From IMG/VR virus record IMGVR_UViG_3300037067_009972: a stretch of 64,000 bases of DNA. The stretch is one strand, 5' to 3'. The translations under genes were made by a program, and so were the position numbers. The stretch is from an uncultured virus (IMG/VR IMGVR_UViG_3300037067_009972) (taxonomy: Duplodnaviria > Heunggongvirae > Uroviricota > Caudoviricetes). Below are positions 3,958 through 62,304 of this stretch, piece after piece. The notes beneath the pieces are model-generated. The model had not been told where the DNA came from. It saw only the letters and a list, made by a program, of their open reading frames with translations, and did no database searches. The first letter of the stretch is position 1. Each line of letters begins with the position of its first letter.

Positions 3958-4596
3958 GTGAAGCATCACAACCCCAACCCCCGTAATATAAAAACAATTA
4001 TAATTCCAGAAGTCAATATACACATGCCATTGCAAATATTTCAGAAGATGTTAGGTTACGCGCAAGCTTCTGAAGGGGAAATAAGCGGCTTTTGTAAAAC
4101 CGCTGTTACCAAGGTAGCTGGAGATTTTAATGTTGAAGTTACCGATATAAAAATATTTACACAAAACGTATCTGATAGCTTTACTAGACTTACAACAAAT
4201 GAACTTACTGCACATTTTATCGATTTGTATAGAGCCAAAGAAGATACAACTAAATGGAATTTATGGTGGCACAGTCATGCGGGAGGGATGGTATTTTTCT
4301 CAAGTATTGATGTACCAACAATCGAGCAAGTAAGTAAAAATGCGGCATTATTTTCTATTTGTATCAATAAACATGGAGAAGTCACAGCCCGCTATGACTA
4401 CAAAGGGAAATTTATAACTGAGGCCACAGTTAATATAGACTATCCTATAAACAAAAGAATTAAGGCTATTTGCGCAAAAGAAGTGGCCGAGAAAGTTACT
4501 TATAAACCATTTATATTCAGTAAATTAGAAAAAGGTCTAAAGTATGAGTGCAAAAATTATGTACACCCGACAAGAAGGAATACTGCCTCAAAATAA
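3958..4596 (+). CDS. JAB/MPN+ (JAMM) metallopeptidase
   Basis: Upstream Glu (EISGF) plus exact HxH-x7-S-x2-D motif HSHAGGMVFFSSID. Confidence 0.88.
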   Translation: MKHHNPNPRNIKTIIIPEVNIHMPLQIFQKMLGYAQASEGEISGFCKTAVTKVAGDFNVEVTDIKIFTQNVSDSFTRLTTNELTAHFIDLYRAKEDTTKWNLWWHSHAGGMVFFSSIDVPTIEQVSKNAALFSICINKHGEVTARYDYKGKFITEATVNIDYPINKRIKAICAKEVAEKVTYKPFIFSKLEKGLKYECKNYVHPTRRNTASK

Positions 4597-5230
4597 AATA
4601 GTAAACGGTGCTGTAACTATTATTGGTTCAGGAGCTATAGGAAGTTTTTCAAGTCTGACACTTGTAAAAATGGGTGTTAAGCATCTAGTCATTTACGATG
4701 AAGATGGTGTTACTAGTCATAATTTACCCAATCAATTTTTTAGGAAAAAAGATATAGGACAATTTAAAGTCACTGCATTAGCGGACATATTAAATGAATT
4801 TAGTGGCACCAAGATTACGGCTCATATACAACCTTACGTTAAACAACAATTAAAAGAAACAACAATTGTTGCAACAGATTCTATGAGTTCTAGACGTTCG
4901 GTATGGGAACAATTTAAACAACAGCCGCAGGCTAAAAATTTGATAGAGGCTAGAATGGGTGCTGAATTAGGATTGGTATATATTATTAAAAAGATAAATG
5001 GAAAAATACCGAAGAAGCTTTTTAACTTTTATGAATCTCGTTTATACAAAGACGAAGATGTGAAACCATTACCCTGTACAGCTAAAGCTATAATTTATAA
5101 CATATTAATGATTTCAAGTTTAATTTGTCGGGCATATAAAAGTATTATTATGAACGAAAAAATGCCTAATGAACTTATTTTTAATATGACTTCTATTGAT
5201 GAACGTTCTTATATGTGTACAACTATATGA
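4544..5230 (+). CDS. ThiF/E1-like ubiquitin-activating adenylyltransferase
   Basis: YTRQ, IIGSGAIGS, D.D.V...NL.NQ, ATDS...R and a lone candidate catalytic Cys (PLPCT). Confidence 0.9.
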   Translation: MSAKIMYTRQEGILPQNKIVNGAVTIIGSGAIGSFSSLTLVKMGVKHLVIYDEDGVTSHNLPNQFFRKKDIGQFKVTALADILNEFSGTKITAHIQPYVKQQLKETTIVATDSMSSRRSVWEQFKQQPQAKNLIEARMGAELGLVYIIKKINGKIPKKLFNFYESRLYKDEDVKPLPCTAKAIIYNILMISSLICRAYKSIIMNEKMPNELIFNMTSIDERSYMCTTI

Positions 5231-5643
5231 AAACAATCAAAATAAGTATAGACCTACATAACTTCTTTGTCTCCAGCACAAGAAGAGATAATTTTAATGC
5301 CTCTTTGTATCTAGTAGGCAAAAATGCTGCAGGAATTTATGTAGATAAAAAACCACTTAGGCGCACAGGTGGCTGTGAATATATGCCGTCTACAAGTACA
5401 AGTAATATAACTAGAGCCTATGTATCTCTATTAAAGCAAAAATTAACCCCGAATGTATTTGTACTTGTAGCACATAATACGCTATATAGGACAGAATGGG
5501 GCGAAGATTTTGGCTCTGCTATAGATGCATTTGGTAAAGAAGTTGTATTTATAACTTATGGCAGAGATTTTTTAAAAGCTGAAAGCGTTGCACGAGAGTT
5601 AAAAGTACAAGTTGTCAATTCAAATTACAAAATAACTAAATAA
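5227..5643 (+). CDS. hypothetical protein between E1 and Ubl
   Basis: 138 aa, ATGA overlap with E1; single Cys (GGCEY). Confidence 0.7.
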   Translation: MKTIKISIDLHNFFVSSTRRDNFNASLYLVGKNAAGIYVDKKPLRRTGGCEYMPSTSTSNITRAYVSLLKQKLTPNVFVLVAHNTLYRTEWGEDFGSAIDAFGKEVVFITYGRDFLKAESVARELKVQVVNSNYKITK

Positions 5644-5669
5644 CACACAATTCATATAAAGGTAACACA

Positions 5670-5891
5670 ATGGCAAAGGGTAAAATCAAGATACATTTCG
5701 GTCGGTTGGTCGATCAAATTCGTGTATCTAATGTTTCAGAAGGTACTACTTTATCAGATTTCTTAACAAAACGTGAAATTAAGTATGGTTCCGCAATTCG
5801 AGTAAATGGTAAAGTCATAAAAAAAGACTATGTCTTACGTAATGACGATATCATAACAGAAATCGACAATGTCGATGGTGGAAAGAATTAA
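5670..5891 (+). CDS. ubiquitin-like (ThiS/MoaD beta-grasp) protein with GG-KN tail
   Basis: 73 aa; GTTLSDFL, IRVNG, VLRNDDII; C-terminus VDGGKN. Confidence 0.85.
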   Translation: MAKGKIKIHFGRLVDQIRVSNVSEGTTLSDFLTKREIKYGSAIRVNGKVIKKDYVLRNDDIITEIDNVDGGKN

Positions 5892-6004: not shown

Positions 6005-6316
6005 ATGAAATTTATATTACCAAAACTAAACAAACCTTACAGAGTACTTCAAGATGTAGAGGTTGAATTATGGCACCTTGATCTTGCTAGCAATAAGAGA
6101 CTAAGTAAACAAGGAATGCTACCATATCGTGGGCATTTTATTATCACTGCAGGTTCCGTGATCAAACTTGTAAATTTCGACTACAAGAGAAATAAGATTA
6201 AAATACGCACTGTGTCATTAAGCGATAAACGTTATGAAAAATTATGCGGGTATGTATCAATGAATAAAAACCCTAACTGGTTAGACAATTTAGATGTAGA
6301 AGAAATTGCGGTATAA
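6005..6316 (+). CDS. hypothetical protein
   Basis: 103 aa ORF filling the gap between tRNA-Thr and tmRNA. Confidence 0.65.
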   Translation: MKFILPKLNKPYRVLQDVEVELWHLDLASNKRLSKQGMLPYRGHFIITAGSVIKLVNFDYKRNKIKIRTVSLSDKRYEKLCGYVSMNKNPNWLDNLDVEEIAV

Positions 6317-6381
6317 GATAATAGTAGAGGCAACTCTACTCAATTTGCTTTTAGTTAAATAATTTTGTATATTGGTATATT

Positions 6382-6744
6382 GGGCCTGAATTGGAATCGA
6401 TTGGGTACATGTGAGATAGTGATGCATGGCGTCAACCACGAAGACGTAAAATCGGTGGAAACTATAAATGCAAAAGAAGAAATCTCTAGCATGACTTTCG
6501 CGGATGCTTTGGCTATGGTTGAAGCTCCTATCGCTATTGCGGTCTAATCGCTGCGAAAGAGCTCGAGAGTTTGACCCGCAAACTCTGAGCGCGATAAAAG
6601 GGTGTAGGTGATATTCCGAATGATATCAAAGTTTTAAGTTTTGGTTACACGAAACTTAAGATGTTTTAAAAAACGTAACTAACCATGTGAAGGAGTTATT
6701 ATTTAACTTACGCAAGACGGGGTTTTCGAATACCCCCAGGTCCA
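6382..6744 (+). ncRNA. ssrA: tmRNA
   Basis: 5' GGGCCTG pairs with 3' CAGGTCC-A including the G3.U alanine determinant; GAC-GGGGT-TTTCGAAT-ACCCC T-arm; resume context ATAAAT-GCA at 6470; tag AKEEISSMTFADALAMVEAPIAIAV, stop at 6547. Confidence 0.92.
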
Positions 6745-6818
6745 CAAGGGAGGTTTCTTTTCATTATACGTTTCTACTTCCTCCGTTTAAAATGAAAAAA
6801 AGGAAAACGTATCAAGAC

Positions 6819-6907
6819 TGCGGAGTGATGACAATTGGCCGTCCGCCAGACTCATAACCTGGGCAAGCCTTCAAAAGCTTATGTTGGTTCGAATCCAACC
6901 TCCGCTA
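6819..6907 (+). tRNA. tRNA with CAT anticodon (Met-type), 1:72 mismatch, long variable arm
   Basis: Acceptor (T)GCGGAG/CTCCGC(T), loop CTCATAA, variable arm GCAAGCCTTCAAAAGCTTAT, T-arm GTTGG-TTCGAAT-CCAAC. Confidence 0.8.
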
Positions 6908-6924
6908 CTATGTCATAATCTTAT

Positions 6925-7047
6925 AAGGAGAAAGAAATGAAGAAACTCTAGGTTCTTTTTAACACCTCATAAACGACTAGTTTTACCCCGACAATAACCG
7001 CGACATAATGTCGCTATAATTGATTGAATAAAAACTAGGAGTTTAAA
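6925..7047 (+). promoter_or_regulatory. putative amber-readthrough leader peptide / translational attenuator
   Basis: AAGGAG RBS, then ATG AAG AAA CTC TAG GTT CTT TTT AAC ACC TCA TAA (6937-6972); CTAGTTTT (6977-6984) pairs with AAAACTAG (7031-7038), overlapping the SD of the 7048 gene. Confidence 0.55.
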
Positions 7048-7398
7048 ATGACACATGAGCAATATCTGCAACTAAAAAATGAGTTAAAACAATTAGCTCA
7101 AATTATCCACTATCGAAAATTAAATTTTCGTGCTTCAGTTTCACAATCCATGGGCGGTACAAAACAATTTTTCGACGAACCAAATTTCGTAAAAGAATAT
7201 GGTGAAAAGCATGGGTATAATCTATTGTTAGCTATTCATGAATACAGACATAAACACATAGTTATGTCTTTAATGCGTGGTAAAACACGTGAGCAAATTG
7301 AAAAACCAAAAAAAGGCAACGAACCCAACGAAGCGTACATCAAAAAACTTCTGGAGCAATATGCAGCAGTTGACGCGCCTGTATGTATTAGTGCGTAA
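7048..7398 (+). CDS. hypothetical basic helical protein upstream of the Pth2-like gene
   Basis: 116 aa, AGGAG RBS; RHKHIVMSLMRGK segment. Confidence 0.8.
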   Translation: MTHEQYLQLKNELKQLAQIIHYRKLNFRASVSQSMGGTKQFFDEPNFVKEYGEKHGYNLLLAIHEYRHKHIVMSLMRGKTREQIEKPKKGNEPNEAYIKKLLEQYAAVDAPVCISA

Positions 7399-7660
7399 GG
7401 ATCTCGGTCCTTCGTACGCTGGAGTTCAAGCAGGTCATGCAGTGGCACAACATATGCTTGAATTCCCCGACCTCTGGAGAAATCAGACTCTCGTGTATTT
7501 GTATGTAAACGATGAAGCAACATTATTGGCATGGAGAGACAAACTCATAATTCGTGGGGTGCCCTATGCAATTTTTCGAGAACCTGATATAATGAATCAA
7601 GCTACCGCGTTAGCTGTATTAAACGATGGTAGTTTGTTCAAAAAATTAAAACTTTTATAA
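7361..7660 (+). CDS. peptidyl-tRNA hydrolase, Pth2-like
   Basis: LYVLVRKDL...GVQAGHA and F.EPD....TALA motifs; GGAG RBS before ATG 7361. Confidence 0.82.
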   Translation: MQQLTRLYVLVRKDLGPSYAGVQAGHAVAQHMLEFPDLWRNQTLVYLYVNDEATLLAWRDKLIIRGVPYAIFREPDIMNQATALAVLNDGSLFKKLKLL

Positions 7661-7695
7661 CGTCAGCGATCACAATATTAATTCAAAGACGTTTT

Positions 7696-7770
7696 ATCCG
7701 TGTAGCCTAGTCCGGAATCAGGCAACGGTCTCTAAAACCGGTAACGTGGGTTCGAATCCCATCACGGGTA
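7696..7770 (+). tRNA. amber suppressor tRNA (anticodon CTA)
   Basis: Acceptor ATCCGTG/CACGGGT, D-stem GCCT/AGGC, anticodon arm CGGT-CTCTAAA-ACCG (CTA at 7732-7734), T-arm GTGGG-TTCGAAT-CCCAT. Confidence 0.88.
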
Positions 7771-7932
7771 CTTTCGCCCGGACGGCGCATTATGACCCTA
7801 GCGCCCTATAAATATGTGGGTCGATCATCCTGTCAAACATAAATTCGCCGAAAGGCAACGGAGCTGTATGACGGGATTTTCTTTATTACAGCTCCGCCAA
7901 GTTATCCACATTATTAACCTCAAGGAGGTTTA

Positions 7933-13571: not shown

Positions 13572-13655
13572 CGGGATATGTGGGTAACTGGACATCCCAG
13601 CGGAACCATAATCCGCCGCAATTAAGCCTTGAGGGTTCAAATCCCTCTATCCCGA
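13572..13655 (+). tRNA. atypical tRNA with CAT anticodon, C33, long variable arm
   Basis: Acceptor CGGGATA/TATCCCG, anticodon arm GCGGA-ACCATAA-TCCGC, T-arm GAGGG-TTCAAAT-CCCTC. Confidence 0.72.
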
Positions 13656-13677
13656 CTTATTTACCTAAGGAGAATAT

Positions 13678-60444: not shown

Positions 60445-62028
60445 TCAATTATTGAAATCAGTGGCACGGTAGTATAATTCTGCAGCCAGGTCTCCGTAAA
60501 GGAGGCTGTGGAAGGTATCATCTGCTGCAGATTTAATATATCTATACGTGTTCTTTTCTTCGTTGTATTCAATCGCAATAGCCAAGATATCTTTCGCATA
60601 ATATTGAAAGTCACTCCATTGCGGGAATATAATCTTCCGCTGTTTTATTTTAGTAAATAATTCAGTCATCACTGTATTGCGAGCTAACGTATAGGCATTT
60701 ATATGGCCATTAAACTGGCCCTTCATCTTTTGATTCGGAACATGCTGAAAAGCTATTAAACGATTCTTATCATGAAGTCTAGCACGAATCTCAGCATTTA
60801 CTGCTTCACCAAAGCCGGCATCAGCCCCAATTAATGTGCAGCCCCACTTATAGAACTGCTGTGGTATATAATCATGAAGATAAGCATAATCTGCTTCTTT
60901 GCCTTCATATTTATGTAGATAAAGTACTTCTGTAATTTCTCCCCGACGCTGTATAATAGTTTGAAGCGTCTTAGACATTTCACTATTTATCGGACCCCAA
61001 TCTATACCTAAAAAGTTTGGATAATTTAATGCATACTTATCAGGTTCTCGCCGCATAGGCCCGCCCGTACAACATGCTTTTATCTCGTCCTCTGTTACAG
61101 GCGCCACGCCTGCATCAAACGGTAAACCCAAATACTCGTTAAAAAATATTCCTCTGGACTTTGTCTGAAAAGGAATAAATACGTCAGTCTGCCAGTTCAC
61201 CCAAGGTGCATGCGCGAACATTAAAACACTAATACGAAAACCTTCAAACAAGTATTCGCCGGTTACAGTAGATTTTTCTGAATCTGGGTTAGTTCGAACC
61301 CATTGACCTTTACGCGCGTCTAGTTTACCGTGACAATACCGACAAGCTAAGCCCCAAGGTTGTATATTTTCTTCATCAAGATAATTATGCTTTCCGCAGT
61401 GGTCACATTTAGCTATCCATTCATTTCTTGTTGTTACCCGCCATCTATTGGCTAACGGACCAATAATATGCTTAGGTGTTCCAGCATATACAGAGTGTTT
61501 ATAATAAGATCGTGCCATAGTCTGTTCTATAACATCGATATTATCGTCCGGAATATCTTGGACTTCGTCTATTAAATTTGTATCCGCGGAAATACCACGA
61601 ATACGATCCGCCGTAGCCGATCCATATCTTAGATAGACTACTGAACCATTTAAGAAGCGTTTTTGAAACACGTTTTGAATGGTAGAACTGCTTACAAAAT
61701 ATTTTTTAAATATCGGGCTTTGTTCTATGACGGTATCGACCCTATCGTACGAGAATACACGTACTTGTTCGACGGTAGGAGAAACTGCCAAAATCTTAAA
61801 GCCACCTTTATGCTTATTACCCACATAAGGCATGATTGCACATTTTGCCAACATAAGATTAGCCAATGTAGTTGATTTAGCGACCTGACGAGATGTGTGT
61901 AAACATAGTTTCATGGGGTCAATGTCGTAGATCATCTTCATGTGTGGATAATCTTCCAAACTGAAGGGTTCGTTATTAAGATAAAAAAACTTTTGTACAA
62001 AGTCTGATAATTTAAATTGTAATGGCAT
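60445..62028 (-). CDS. terminase large subunit
   Basis: RQVAKST (Walker A-like), RIRGIS, DEVQD, GTP, CxxC pairs, GIDWG and DD..H nuclease motifs. Confidence 0.88.
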   Translation of the reverse strand: MPLQFKLSDFVQKFFYLNNEPFSLEDYPHMKMIYDIDPMKLCLHTSRQVAKSTTLANLMLAKCAIMPYVGNKHKGGFKILAVSPTVEQVRVFSYDRVDTVIEQSPIFKKYFVSSSTIQNVFQKRFLNGSVVYLRYGSATADRIRGISADTNLIDEVQDIPDDNIDVIEQTMARSYYKHSVYAGTPKHIIGPLANRWRVTTRNEWIAKCDHCGKHNYLDEENIQPWGLACRYCHGKLDARKGQWVRTNPDSEKSTVTGEYLFEGFRISVLMFAHAPWVNWQTDVFIPFQTKSRGIFFNEYLGLPFDAGVAPVTEDEIKACCTGGPMRREPDKYALNYPNFLGIDWGPINSEMSKTLQTIIQRRGEITEVLYLHKYEGKEADYAYLHDYIPQQFYKWGCTLIGADAGFGEAVNAEIRARLHDKNRLIAFQHVPNQKMKGQFNGHINAYTLARNTVMTELFTKIKQRKIIFPQWSDFQYYAKDILAIAIEYNEEKNTYRYIKSAADDTFHSLLYGDLAAELYYRATDFNN

Positions 62029-62037
62029 TAGGATTTT

Positions 62038-62304
62038 CTATTTCCAATTCATTTCTTCTTCGTATCTGGTATGTCGACGAGGTGTTTTAAGTTTACCTGT
62101 TCCTTGTATTTTAGATCCACGACGATCCACTTCAAACTCCGGACCTAACAATTCTTTTATCTCTCTATTTAATGCATTGTTTTGTCCAGTACGAAATAAT
62201 TTTGCTTGTGTGTATCTGCCCAATTTATTTGCCTTTATAAAAGCACGTTCTAATAGTTCAGAACTTAGCCCTATTTTCTCCATTACTTGTTCTGCTTTTG
62301 TCAT
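62038..62304 (-). CDS. hypothetical basic protein (TAG stop in frame with terminase)
   Basis: 88 aa; ATGA overlap with the upstream gene. Confidence 0.65.
   Translation of the reverse strand: MTKAEQVMEKIGLSSELLERAFIKANKLGRYTQAKLFRTGQNNALNREIKELLGPEFEVDRRGSKIQGTGKLKTPRRHTRYEEEMNWK

Follow-up and report, generated by a model that had tools for sequence, protein, structure and literature searches.

A phage leader with an in-frame amber codon upstream of a Pth2-like hydrolase gene: a likely translational attenuator tied to an adjacent suppressor tRNA

Results

A stop-gated leader precedes a two-gene unit and an amber suppressor tRNA

We analysed 64,000 nucleotides (nt) of DNA from an uncultured virus of the Caudoviricetes (IMG/VR record IMGVR_UViG_3300037067_009972); this whole stretch is called the window below, and position 1 is its first letter. 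Positions 6925-7047 of the window are likely to form a translational attenuator that ties the expression of two genes, for a protein of 116 amino acids (aa) and for a Pth2-like hydrolase, to readthrough of a UAG codon by a tRNA with the anticodon CUA, tRNA(CUA), encoded downstream. Synthesis of the two proteins probably requires that tRNA(CUA) override the UAG of the leader. Judging from the relatives compared here, this leader design is common to hundreds of phages. The features of the leader and of the unit behind it are as follows.

6925..6930, + strand: Shine-Dalgarno (SD) site AAGGAG of the leader upstream open reading frame (uORF), 6 nt 5′ of ATG 6937
6937..6951, + strand: leader uORF up to its gate codon, M-K-K-L-TAG (TAG at 6949-6951, next base G)
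6952..6972, + strand: readthrough extension V-L-F-N-T-S, ending at TAA 6970-6972
6970..6984, + strand: 5′ arm of the SD-sequestering helix, uORF TAA included (minimum-free-energy (MFE) and centroid folds, swap test)
7000..7014, + strand: inner hairpin with a 6-bp stem and a 3-nt loop, which closes the loop of the large helix
7031..7045, + strand: 3′ arm of the SD-sequestering helix, with the AGGAG SD (7037-7041) of the 116-aa gene (sequence and folds)
7048..7398, + strand: 116-aa gene, of an uncharacterised all-helical family, partner of the hydrolase
7361..7660, + strand: Pth2-like hydrolase gene (99 aa), overlapping the 116-aa gene by 38 nt
7696..7771, + strand: tRNA with anticodon CUA, an amber suppressor (ARAGORN; Rfam tRNA model 54 bits against a gathering score of 29)

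An original prediction, made by a model from the letters alone, had described an AAGGAG-driven mini-ORF reading M-K-K-L-TAG-V-L-F-N-T-S-TAA, followed by the 116-aa ORF, a Pth2-like ORF and a CUA-anticodon tRNA. All of these elements are present, and the Pth2 fold was confirmed on a structure model (see below). As in known attenuators, the uORF has its own ATG (6937) and its own ribosome-binding site, and it lies 75 nt ahead of the regulated start.

The same prediction had paired an anti-SD arm with the SD of the 116-aa gene around an inner hairpin, and this pairing was borne out. CTAGTTTT (6977-6984) is the exact reverse complement of AAAACTAG (7031-7038), which reaches into the AGGAG SD located 6 nt ahead of the ATG at 7048. 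The MFE fold lengthens the helix by pairing TAAAC (6970-6974) with GTTTA (7041-7045), so that the terminal stop of the uORF itself lies inside it. Three of the five SD bases are paired in the predicted fold and the other two sit in a 2x2 internal loop. The fold of 6925-7065 reaches -29.6 kcal/mol, compared with a mean of -16.7 for shuffled sequences (z -4.15), and none of the 200 shuffles equalled it. The SD partner begins 25 nt past the first TAG and occupies +4 to +8 relative to the TAA.

No terminator-like site of the kind used in trp/his-type transcription attenuation was found on the + strand of 6925-7047; the helix involves the SD instead. The leader matches no Rfam family, and its sequence contains neither a prfB-like slippery site nor an internal SD. 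A scan of the window with the TAG-gate pattern returned 19 matches, among which the leader at 6937 is the only one taken as genuine, owing to its full AAGGAG site and its intergenic position. The other matches that were checked (5339, 10638, 16306 and 24233) lie inside or antisense to long ORFs. CTAG is not rare in the window (141 sites), and its clustering was for that reason discounted as a protein-binding motif.

The leader uORF is conserved, and the frame beyond the TAG bears signs of coding

We compared the leaders of 98 non-redundant loci, using the 220 nt upstream of the homologue start as set by the family profile. A strict uORF was defined as a mini-ORF that starts with ATG behind an SD site, spans no more than 12 codons and has TAG as its first stop. 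Such a uORF occurs in 79 of the 98 leaders. The first stops of mini-ORFs in the leaders (19.5 kb in all) are TAG in 83 cases, TAA in 5 and TGA in 4 (n = 92). The rest of the same loci, taken on both strands as a control (826 kb), gave 180 TAG, 249 TAA and 176 TGA. TAG-first mini-ORFs are thus about 20 times denser in the leaders than in the control DNA, while among the long ORFs of these loci TAG is the rarest stop (48/366). The first TAG falls on codon 3 in 61 of the 79 strict leaders; 32 leaders carry one in-frame TAG, 40 carry two and 7 carry three.

The base after the in-frame TAG is almost always a purine (130/133; G 65, A 65, T 2, C 1). A U in this position (+4U) lowers read-through at termination, according to the part of PMC5289835 available to us. 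The purine bias thus suggests avoidance of +4U and a context that favours suppression.

When TAG is read as sense, 48 of the 79 leader peptides end in Pro-Pro and 73 contain it. The contexts include FKPP (12 leaders), RGPP (12), LKPP and YKPP (5 each), and IRPP, KIPP, RSPP, RDPP and RAPP (4 each). The Pro-Pro ends are encoded by 14 different CCN CCN codon pairs, and CCUCC is present in only 21 of the 48, which argues for constraint on the peptide rather than on an anti-SD sequence. Related leaders were compared in 12 independent pairs; past the first TAG, they differ at first, second and third codon positions in a ratio of 9/10/34. As far as sequence comparison can tell, the frame past the TAG is under selection at the peptide level, and judged by this selection it is translated. 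The peptides are short, with a median of 16 codons.

A relaxed motif, consisting of TAG-purine and an in-frame Pro-Pro within 30 codons, was found in 89 of the 98 leaders compared with 117 of 3300 background windows. The conserved upstream uORF with an in-frame TAG that the original prediction had expected in homologous loci is thus present under either definition. The window and its closest relatives in the set, L033 and L034, are among the nine leaders without the relaxed motif. The residues ahead of the stop in this clade are N-T-S, N-D-T or D-T-S. In L132, the closest relative of the window and outside the 98, the N-T-S-stop end is kept through synonymous changes. Pro-Pro has been lost in the window clade, which still carries the TAG and the helix together with a conserved N-T-S-stop end.

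In a separate clade of IMG/VR leaders (L217, L238, L247, L254 and related ones) two W-TAG repeats are followed by I-R-G-P-D, an end that we take to resemble the R-A-G-P arrest end of the SecM type.

The helix that hides the SD is partner-specific

Pairing of the SD was measured against the stretch from -15 to +21 around the terminal stop of the uORF in 70 leaders. The mean pairing probability was 0.78, compared with 0.37 in shuffled sequences, and exceeded 0.5 in 58 of the 70 leaders (Wilcoxon p 4e-12). As a control for the generic complementarity between SD and anti-SD sequences, the arms of 65 leaders were swapped. Native arms pair at -14.8 kcal/mol and swapped arms at -8.3 (p 3e-12), and in 46 of the 65 leaders the native pair outdoes 95% or more of the unrelated partners. 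The native arm duplex of the window (-14.1 kcal/mol) has rank 0 in this test, its 5′ arm being bound less well by the SD arm of every unrelated leader.

Of 62 leaders, 61 have the SD partner 16 nt or more beyond the first TAG, and 61 have it no farther than 15 nt from the terminal stop. This fits the footprint argument of the original prediction, by which a ribosome stopping at the TAG would stay too far upstream to melt the helix and one reaching the terminal stop would cover its 5′ arm. Compensatory changes are seen within the window clade. A U-A pair of the window helix is C-G in L132, and in a consensus fold of three sequences, which is a small sample, 8 of 21 pairs are changed on both sides. 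Four of the five predicted pairs of the inner hairpin in this consensus fold are changed on both sides in L033. The covarying anti-SD helix proposed at the outset is thus conserved. The design of the leader, its conservation and its covariation are direct observations.

Gate codon and suppressor anticodon change together

Gate codons and tRNA anticodons were tallied automatically over 174 non-redundant loci.

Loci with tRNA(CUA) only (n = 130): 103 TAG-gated, 25 without the motif, 2 with another stop type
Loci with tRNA(UCA) only (n = 3): 3 TGA-gated

The UCA loci belong to a clade without SD sites (three distinct loci), in which tRNA(UCA) lies 3′ of the Pth2-like gene and the leaders carry an in-frame TGA followed by a purine and then by G-P-D. 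In Lak megaphages a tRNA(UUA) adjoins the module, and the leaders contain an in-frame TAA followed by G, with an R-G-(S)-P motif. Over the loci compared, the gate codon tracks the anticodon of the adjacent tRNA, pairing CUA with TAG, UCA with TGA and UUA with TAA.

A second form of gating was found in the Pth2-like gene itself. Five huge-phage records carry a single TAG at its codon 3 or 4. The next in-frame ATG, GTG or TTG start in four of them (L119, L121, L122 and L124) lies past the conserved N-terminus of the gene, and the fifth (L123) has no ORF of at least 50 aa over the Pth2-like gene. In L121 (GenBank LR745206) and L124 (LR756502) the two forms of gating occur together, the leader ending in Pro-Pro-stop with its TAG at codon 3 and the Pth2-like gene having a further TAG at codon 4. 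Their leader stands about 150-250 nt upstream of the Pth2-like gene, with no 116-aa gene in between.

Related arrangements occur in cultured phages. XacN1, Xoo-sp13 and CM1 have an SD-preceded ATG 7-25 codons upstream of, and in frame with, the Pth2-like gene, with a TAG at codon 3-4. In these phages the Pth2-like domain forms a fusion with an N-terminal domain, which by eye resembles an HD phosphohydrolase in sequence. XacN1 is described in the accessible part of PMC5852040 as a standard-code phage with two tRNA(CUA) genes and no identifiable suppressor target. In Bixzunavirus mycobacteriophages the order is tRNA-Tyr, a leader that starts with M-F-TAG, a small gene, an annotated peptidyl-tRNA hydrolase and tRNA(CUA).

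The module recurs in unrelated, mainly standard-code phages

Homologues of the 116-aa protein numbered 14 in a word-indexed search; a profile search returned 1,748 cluster representatives with E <= 1e-3, of which 996 had E <= 1e-10. The alignment-based scan for 116-aa loci contributed 31 loci from IMG/VR, 80 of 220 confirmed matches from JGI metagenomes, and only 4 from species genomes, all of which are contigs of metagenome-assembled genomes. A Pth2-like ORF follows the 116-aa gene, usually overlapping it, in 88 of 112 rows, with redundant rows counted. The position of the tRNA was tallied over the 58 non-redundant loci whose downstream flank spans 1,500 nt or more. A tRNA(CUA) lies within 1,500 nt downstream on the same strand in 43 of these loci and anywhere in the locus in 51, with a median gap of 281 nt. 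The 79 distinct tRNA(CUA) sequences are diverse and show no clear amino-acid identity. When the Pth2-like gene was used as the anchor, 342 IMG/VR relatives were recovered, and a tRNA stands directly 3′ of the gene in most of the 71 non-redundant loci. Several relatives also have a tRNA directly 5′ of the leader, and for 6 of the 98 non-redundant loci ARAGORN called a tmRNA (transfer-messenger RNA) gene.

The window is phage DNA, as it encodes a large terminase (TerL; 60445-62028, - strand; phrog_675, E 1e-56). A blastn search of the window against GenBank phages found no close relative, single-protein scans of IMG/VR with the window proteins gave no match, and tblastn of two members of the 116-aa family against GenBank phages was likewise negative. 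No match was found between the TerL of the window and five jumbo records that carry the module, which places the module in unrelated phage lineages.

Under genetic code 11 the window, representing 64 kb of the genome, is 92% coding, and TAG is the stop of 6 of its 81 ORFs. The ORFs of the window gain less length when TAG is read as sense than when TGA is. Neither in-frame TAGs across many genes nor the low code-11 coding density that would mark recoding to code 15 were found in the 64-kb window, and its phage uses the standard code. TerL frames are free of internal stops in four of the five module-bearing jumbo records. Together with the lack of recoding in the window, these open frames suggest that the module resides mainly in standard-code phages.

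An ORF of 88 aa (62038-62304, - strand) has its TAG stop three codons ahead of the TerL start and in the same frame, so that readthrough would fuse the two; the TerL start has no clear SD. Readthrough into TerL was rejected in favour of ordinary coupling, which is simpler, and the PHROG profile of TerL needs no extension to be fully covered.

The two proteins probably act together

The Pth2-like protein of the window scores 19.5 bits against PF01981 (E 0.0012), below the curated Pfam cut-off of 23. PF01981 matches 32 of 62 members of the Pth2-like family at E <= 0.01, with a best value of 1.1e-8, and a profile search of the PDB with the family reached Pth2 chains at E 2.8e-5. The structure model has a predicted local distance difference test (pLDDT) score of 94.5, and the top 12 Foldseek rows are all Pth2 (2zv3 chains, then 1q7s, 1wn2, 1rlk, 1xty and 3erj), with E values of 3e-7 to 1e-4, template modelling (TM) scores of 0.72-0.79 and a probability of 1.00. 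The alpha/beta fold of Pth2 is thus confirmed on the predicted model. Columns Q23, H26, W39, E74, D76 and T82 are invariant in the family. Compared with archaeal and eukaryotic Pth2 (PF01981; 2zv3, 1q7s, 1xty, 3erj), the phage protein is alike in fold, with weak but consistent sequence similarity. It differs in being shorter (99 aa) and in being paired with, or fused to, a helical partner of unknown fold family.

This partner, the 116-aa protein, is all-helical in an AlphaFold2 model (pLDDT 89). It gave no consistent match in Pfam, PHROG or NCBIfam. A PDB profile search returned only designed coiled coils at E about 1, Foldseek nothing at E <= 0.001, and VIA-align generic helical hairpins with a best Z of 5.9. 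The ESM Atlas held no usable match; a weak row, from a cluster with 15% release-factor-domain members, fell under the bar and was left unused. Among the top 150 representatives 11 are long, and four of these are natural fusions in which the 116-aa domain is joined to a Pth2-like domain. These fusions and the gene overlap suggest that the two proteins very probably act together.

RNA genes and other neighbours of the leader

Two further RNA elements precede the leader in the window, both absent from the original prediction.

6382..6747, + strand: phage tmRNA gene, upstream of the leader unit (Rfam RF00023, 93.7 bits, E 8e-36, full-length model)
6819..6906, + strand: tRNA-like element directly 5′ of the leader, with a CAU anticodon loop and a long variable arm (best Rfam match tRNA-Sec)

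The tmRNA was missed by ARAGORN; the tag peptide read from its resume codon ends in ...PIAIAV. The tRNA-like element scores 26.2 bits against tRNA-Sec, below the gathering score of 47, and is not called by ARAGORN. A similar gene at 13572-13656 (+ strand), also with a CAU anticodon and a long variable arm, was called tRNA-Met (85 nt) and reaches only 24.9 bits in Rfam. Type-II-like tRNAs with a CAU anticodon, as at these two sites, are unusual. Between tRNA genes at 4544-5891 (+ strand) the window encodes a ThiF-family E1-like protein (PF00899, E 5e-18) near a small ThiS-like protein (PF02597, E 1.6e-4); the two may form a phage pair of the ubiquitin-like or sulfur-transfer kind. DNA nearly identical to window positions 6300-7900 is present in three DNA runs labelled groundwater and landfill metagenome (sampled-word shares 0.99, 0.93 and 0.56), the first of which may be where the window comes from.

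Discussion

Proposed mechanism

For readthrough, the direction of control and the biological purpose, we infer the following scheme from the sequences. In the default, off state the SD of the 116-aa gene would be locked in the helix whose 5′ arm starts at the uORF TAA. A ribosome released at the UAG (codon 5) would halt about 20 nt short of this arm, and the genes would stay off. In the on state tRNA(CUA) would outcompete RF1, the ribosome would reach the TAA and cover the 5′ arm, and the SD would be free for a second ribosome to start. The extensions of most relatives end in Pro-Pro-stop or R-(G/A/S/D)-P-P, where an arrest would hold the helix open for longer, and the presence of one to three in-frame TAGs would sharpen the threshold.

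Several observations weigh against this scheme. The leader peptide of the window, M-K-K-L-x-V-L-F-N-T-S, contains no Pro-Pro, RAPP-like or other recognised arrest motif. A predicted hairpin at 6929-6960, to which the scheme gives no role, pairs the SD and start region of the uORF with the U-rich stretch just past the TAG. Weak promoter-like sites at 6982-7009 and 7020-7049 (9/12 matches) could give transcripts that lack the 5′ arm; such sites are no more frequent in the leader region than in shuffles (8 vs 6.9). Among the relatives, 19 of the 98 leaders fail the strict uORF test, 17 of which pass the relaxed one, and SD pairing falls below 0.5 in 12 of 70 leaders. Extra TAGs occur 54 times in frame and 18 and 31 times in the other two frames, a moderate excess. 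In the tally of gate codons, 25 of the 130 CUA-only loci lack a TAG-gated Pro-Pro or Gly-Pro motif, and another 2 have only a different stop type, one of these two rows being the window's own sequence through a spurious match. The UCA and UUA cases represent at most two independent events. The leader of the Bixzunavirus phages crosses the next start in another frame, which implies a different geometry. In genes of the XacN1 type the annotated ATG lies in frame 4-5 codons past the TAG, so that termination followed by re-initiation is an alternative there.

Alternative explanations

The quantity that the switch reads might be RF1 activity or ribosome pausing at the UAG, with the phage tRNA constant and the competition from RF1 varying, for instance when a phage or host response lowers RF1. 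Because the tRNA/RF1 ratio sets the extent of readthrough, the sequence evidence fits either input, and the position of the UAG at codon 3 in most leaders may weaken termination. We nevertheless hold this explanation to be unlikely. The gate codon tracks the adjacent anticodon even where it is TGA, which is read by RF2; the tight linkage of tRNA and leader (43/58 loci) points to the tRNA as the designed input, and no RF1 inhibitor was identified. It is also quite unlikely that the leader is an ordinary arrest peptide serving as a "monitoring substrate", with the activity of the hydrolase pair, EF-P or prolyl-tRNA as the input and the TAGs only restricting expression to infected cells that hold the phage tRNA. 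Such a role would suit the RAPP-like or Pro-Pro-stop ends in 73 of 79 leaders, and by analogy a peptidyl-tRNA hydrolase would be a plausible releaser. Arrest peptides released by the product that they control are on record, as the accessible parts of PMC7897499 and PMC12992588 describe. On the other hand, the window clade has no Pro-Pro at all, and the TAG is the most conserved feature of the leaders, with a gate codon that switches along with the anticodon. A monitoring role would, moreover, add to the suppressor-gated attenuator rather than replace it.

Two explanations would remove the switch altogether. According to one, uORF and helix have no regulatory role, the helix being a processing or termination structure of tmRNA or tRNA genes and the TAG ORF a product of chance. 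The leader does sit in a tRNA/tmRNA array, short ORFs and 8-nt complements are common in DNA of 37% GC, and CTAG is not rare in the window (141 sites). Yet chance does not account for the density of TAG-first mini-ORFs in the leaders, for the coding selection past the TAG or for a partner-specific helix that involves the SD, and the + strand of the leader has no terminator-like site. We regard this explanation as highly improbable; the stop counts, the swap test, the gate and anticodon tally and the codon-position differences largely refute it. According to the other, the phage reads TAG as sense throughout (code 15) and the leader is a small gene in that code. Some Pth2-like relatives do occur in Lak and other huge phages prone to recoding, as the available text of the Borges preprint (10.1101/2021.08.26.457843) indicates. 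This explanation is scarcely credible for the window, given its coding density under code 11, its few ORFs ending in TAG and the greater lengthening of its ORFs by TGA read as sense. The TerL frames of four module-bearing jumbo records contain no internal stop either, and XacN1, with its targetless suppressor tRNAs, is reported as a standard-code phage (PMC5852040, in the part available).

Possible purpose

For the suppressor-gated attenuator, the purpose that we prefer is feedback or quality control tied to amber suppression, which would be exerted by the hydrolase complex on tRNA-linked esters. It is favoured by the Pth2 fold, by the tmRNA beside the leader and by the ARAGORN tmRNA calls among the related loci. 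The original prediction spoke of translation-rescue genes, a role to which the Pth2 fold and the neighbouring tmRNA would point. A wider circuit can be drawn, which we put forward as a doubtful possibility. In standard-code phages the suppressor tRNA would then be no aid to decoding but the diffusible signal in a loop made of the tRNA, a stop-gated arrest leader and a two-part hydrolase. The leader would act as a monitoring substrate whose stalled peptidyl-tRNA is released by the very complex of Pth2-like and 116-aa proteins that it controls, and amber suppression or rescue capacity would be kept at a set point.

Relation to known systems

The closest relatives in design are RAPP-type and other arrest peptides (ApdA, ApdP, ApcA; SecM, MifM), which share a short upstream ORF, a stall caused by the nascent peptide and the opening of an SD-hiding helix. 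As in those systems, a ribosome at the leader end would overlap the 5′ arm of the SD helix, both in the window and in the family. RGPP and RAPP, present in 12 and 4 of the 79 leaders, are experimentally shown to be robust arrest sequences that EF-P does not relieve, according to the accessible part of PMC12992588; RAPP-type arrest is also documented in the part of PMC10951233 available to us. The phage leaders differ in that their peptides are far shorter and the arrest site can be reached only after reading through one to three in-frame stops, so that the input would be nonsense suppression and not protein export. They also control a Pth2-fold protein and its partner, and the leader of the window has no arrest motif.

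In trpL, hisL and pheL of amino-acid operons, a tiny leader ORF holds a run of regulatory codons, and where the ribosome stands with respect to alternative helices reflects how much of one charged tRNA is available. In the phage leader a stop codon takes the place of these codons and a phage suppressor that of the tRNA; the output would be exposure of an SD, with no terminator involved. The minigenes of the phage lambda bar regions are ORFs of two to four codons with a strong SD and an interplay with peptidyl-tRNA hydrolase activity; they differ in that they are not read through and have no downstream SD under control. The autoregulation of prfB (RF2), as cited in the available part of PMC5289835, is similar in that decoding of an early in-frame stop sets the expression of a translation factor. 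There, a +1 frameshift inside the gene senses RF2, whereas the phage design employs a uORF outside the gene, combined with a suppressor tRNA and an SD helix. The "code change module" of recoded phages, which comprises a suppressor tRNA and an aminoacyl-tRNA synthetase as well as a release factor, likewise uses the suppressor tRNA as a device for timing or control, as the accessible text of the Borges preprint (10.1101/2021.08.26.457843) has it. In those phages the in-frame stops are spread genome-wide over late genes, whereas the phage studied here uses the standard code. The authors of the preprint speculate that phages could sense suppressor tRNAs; its available text contains the words "leader" and "hydrolase" zero times and does not mention a uORF.

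The original prediction knew of no described phage system of this type, and our full-text literature searches, which covered main texts and included the theta-ribozyme paper, likewise found no description of such a suppressor-gated leader. Synthetic leader peptides gated by an amber codon have been built for genetic-code expansion, where the UAG makes the output dependent on a suppressor. These are man-made, and no natural counterpart was found in the literature searched. As far as these searches show, the phage leader would be the first natural leader-peptide switch with nonsense suppression as its input.

Significance

If the attenuator operates as proposed, a long-known class of regulators gains a new quantity that it can sense. 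The leader and the early in-frame TAG of the XacN1-type gene offer concrete targets for the "orphan" suppressor tRNAs of standard-code large phages. The wider circuit, if true, would explain the orphan suppressor tRNAs of cultured jumbo phages such as XacN1 and provide a plausible stepping stone to stop-codon recoding of whole genomes. The trigger of the phage "code switch" is called poorly understood in the accessible text of PMC10879173, and the leader switch gives a testable handle on it. Two protein families linked to suppressor tRNAs also become available for experiment: one is unannotated and numbers about 1,700 clusters, and the other is a branch of Pth2 found in phages. Related arrangements of the module in cultured phages, for example in the Bixzunavirus mycobacteriophages, make the proposal testable, and synthetic biology with expanded genetic codes could take over the design as it stands.

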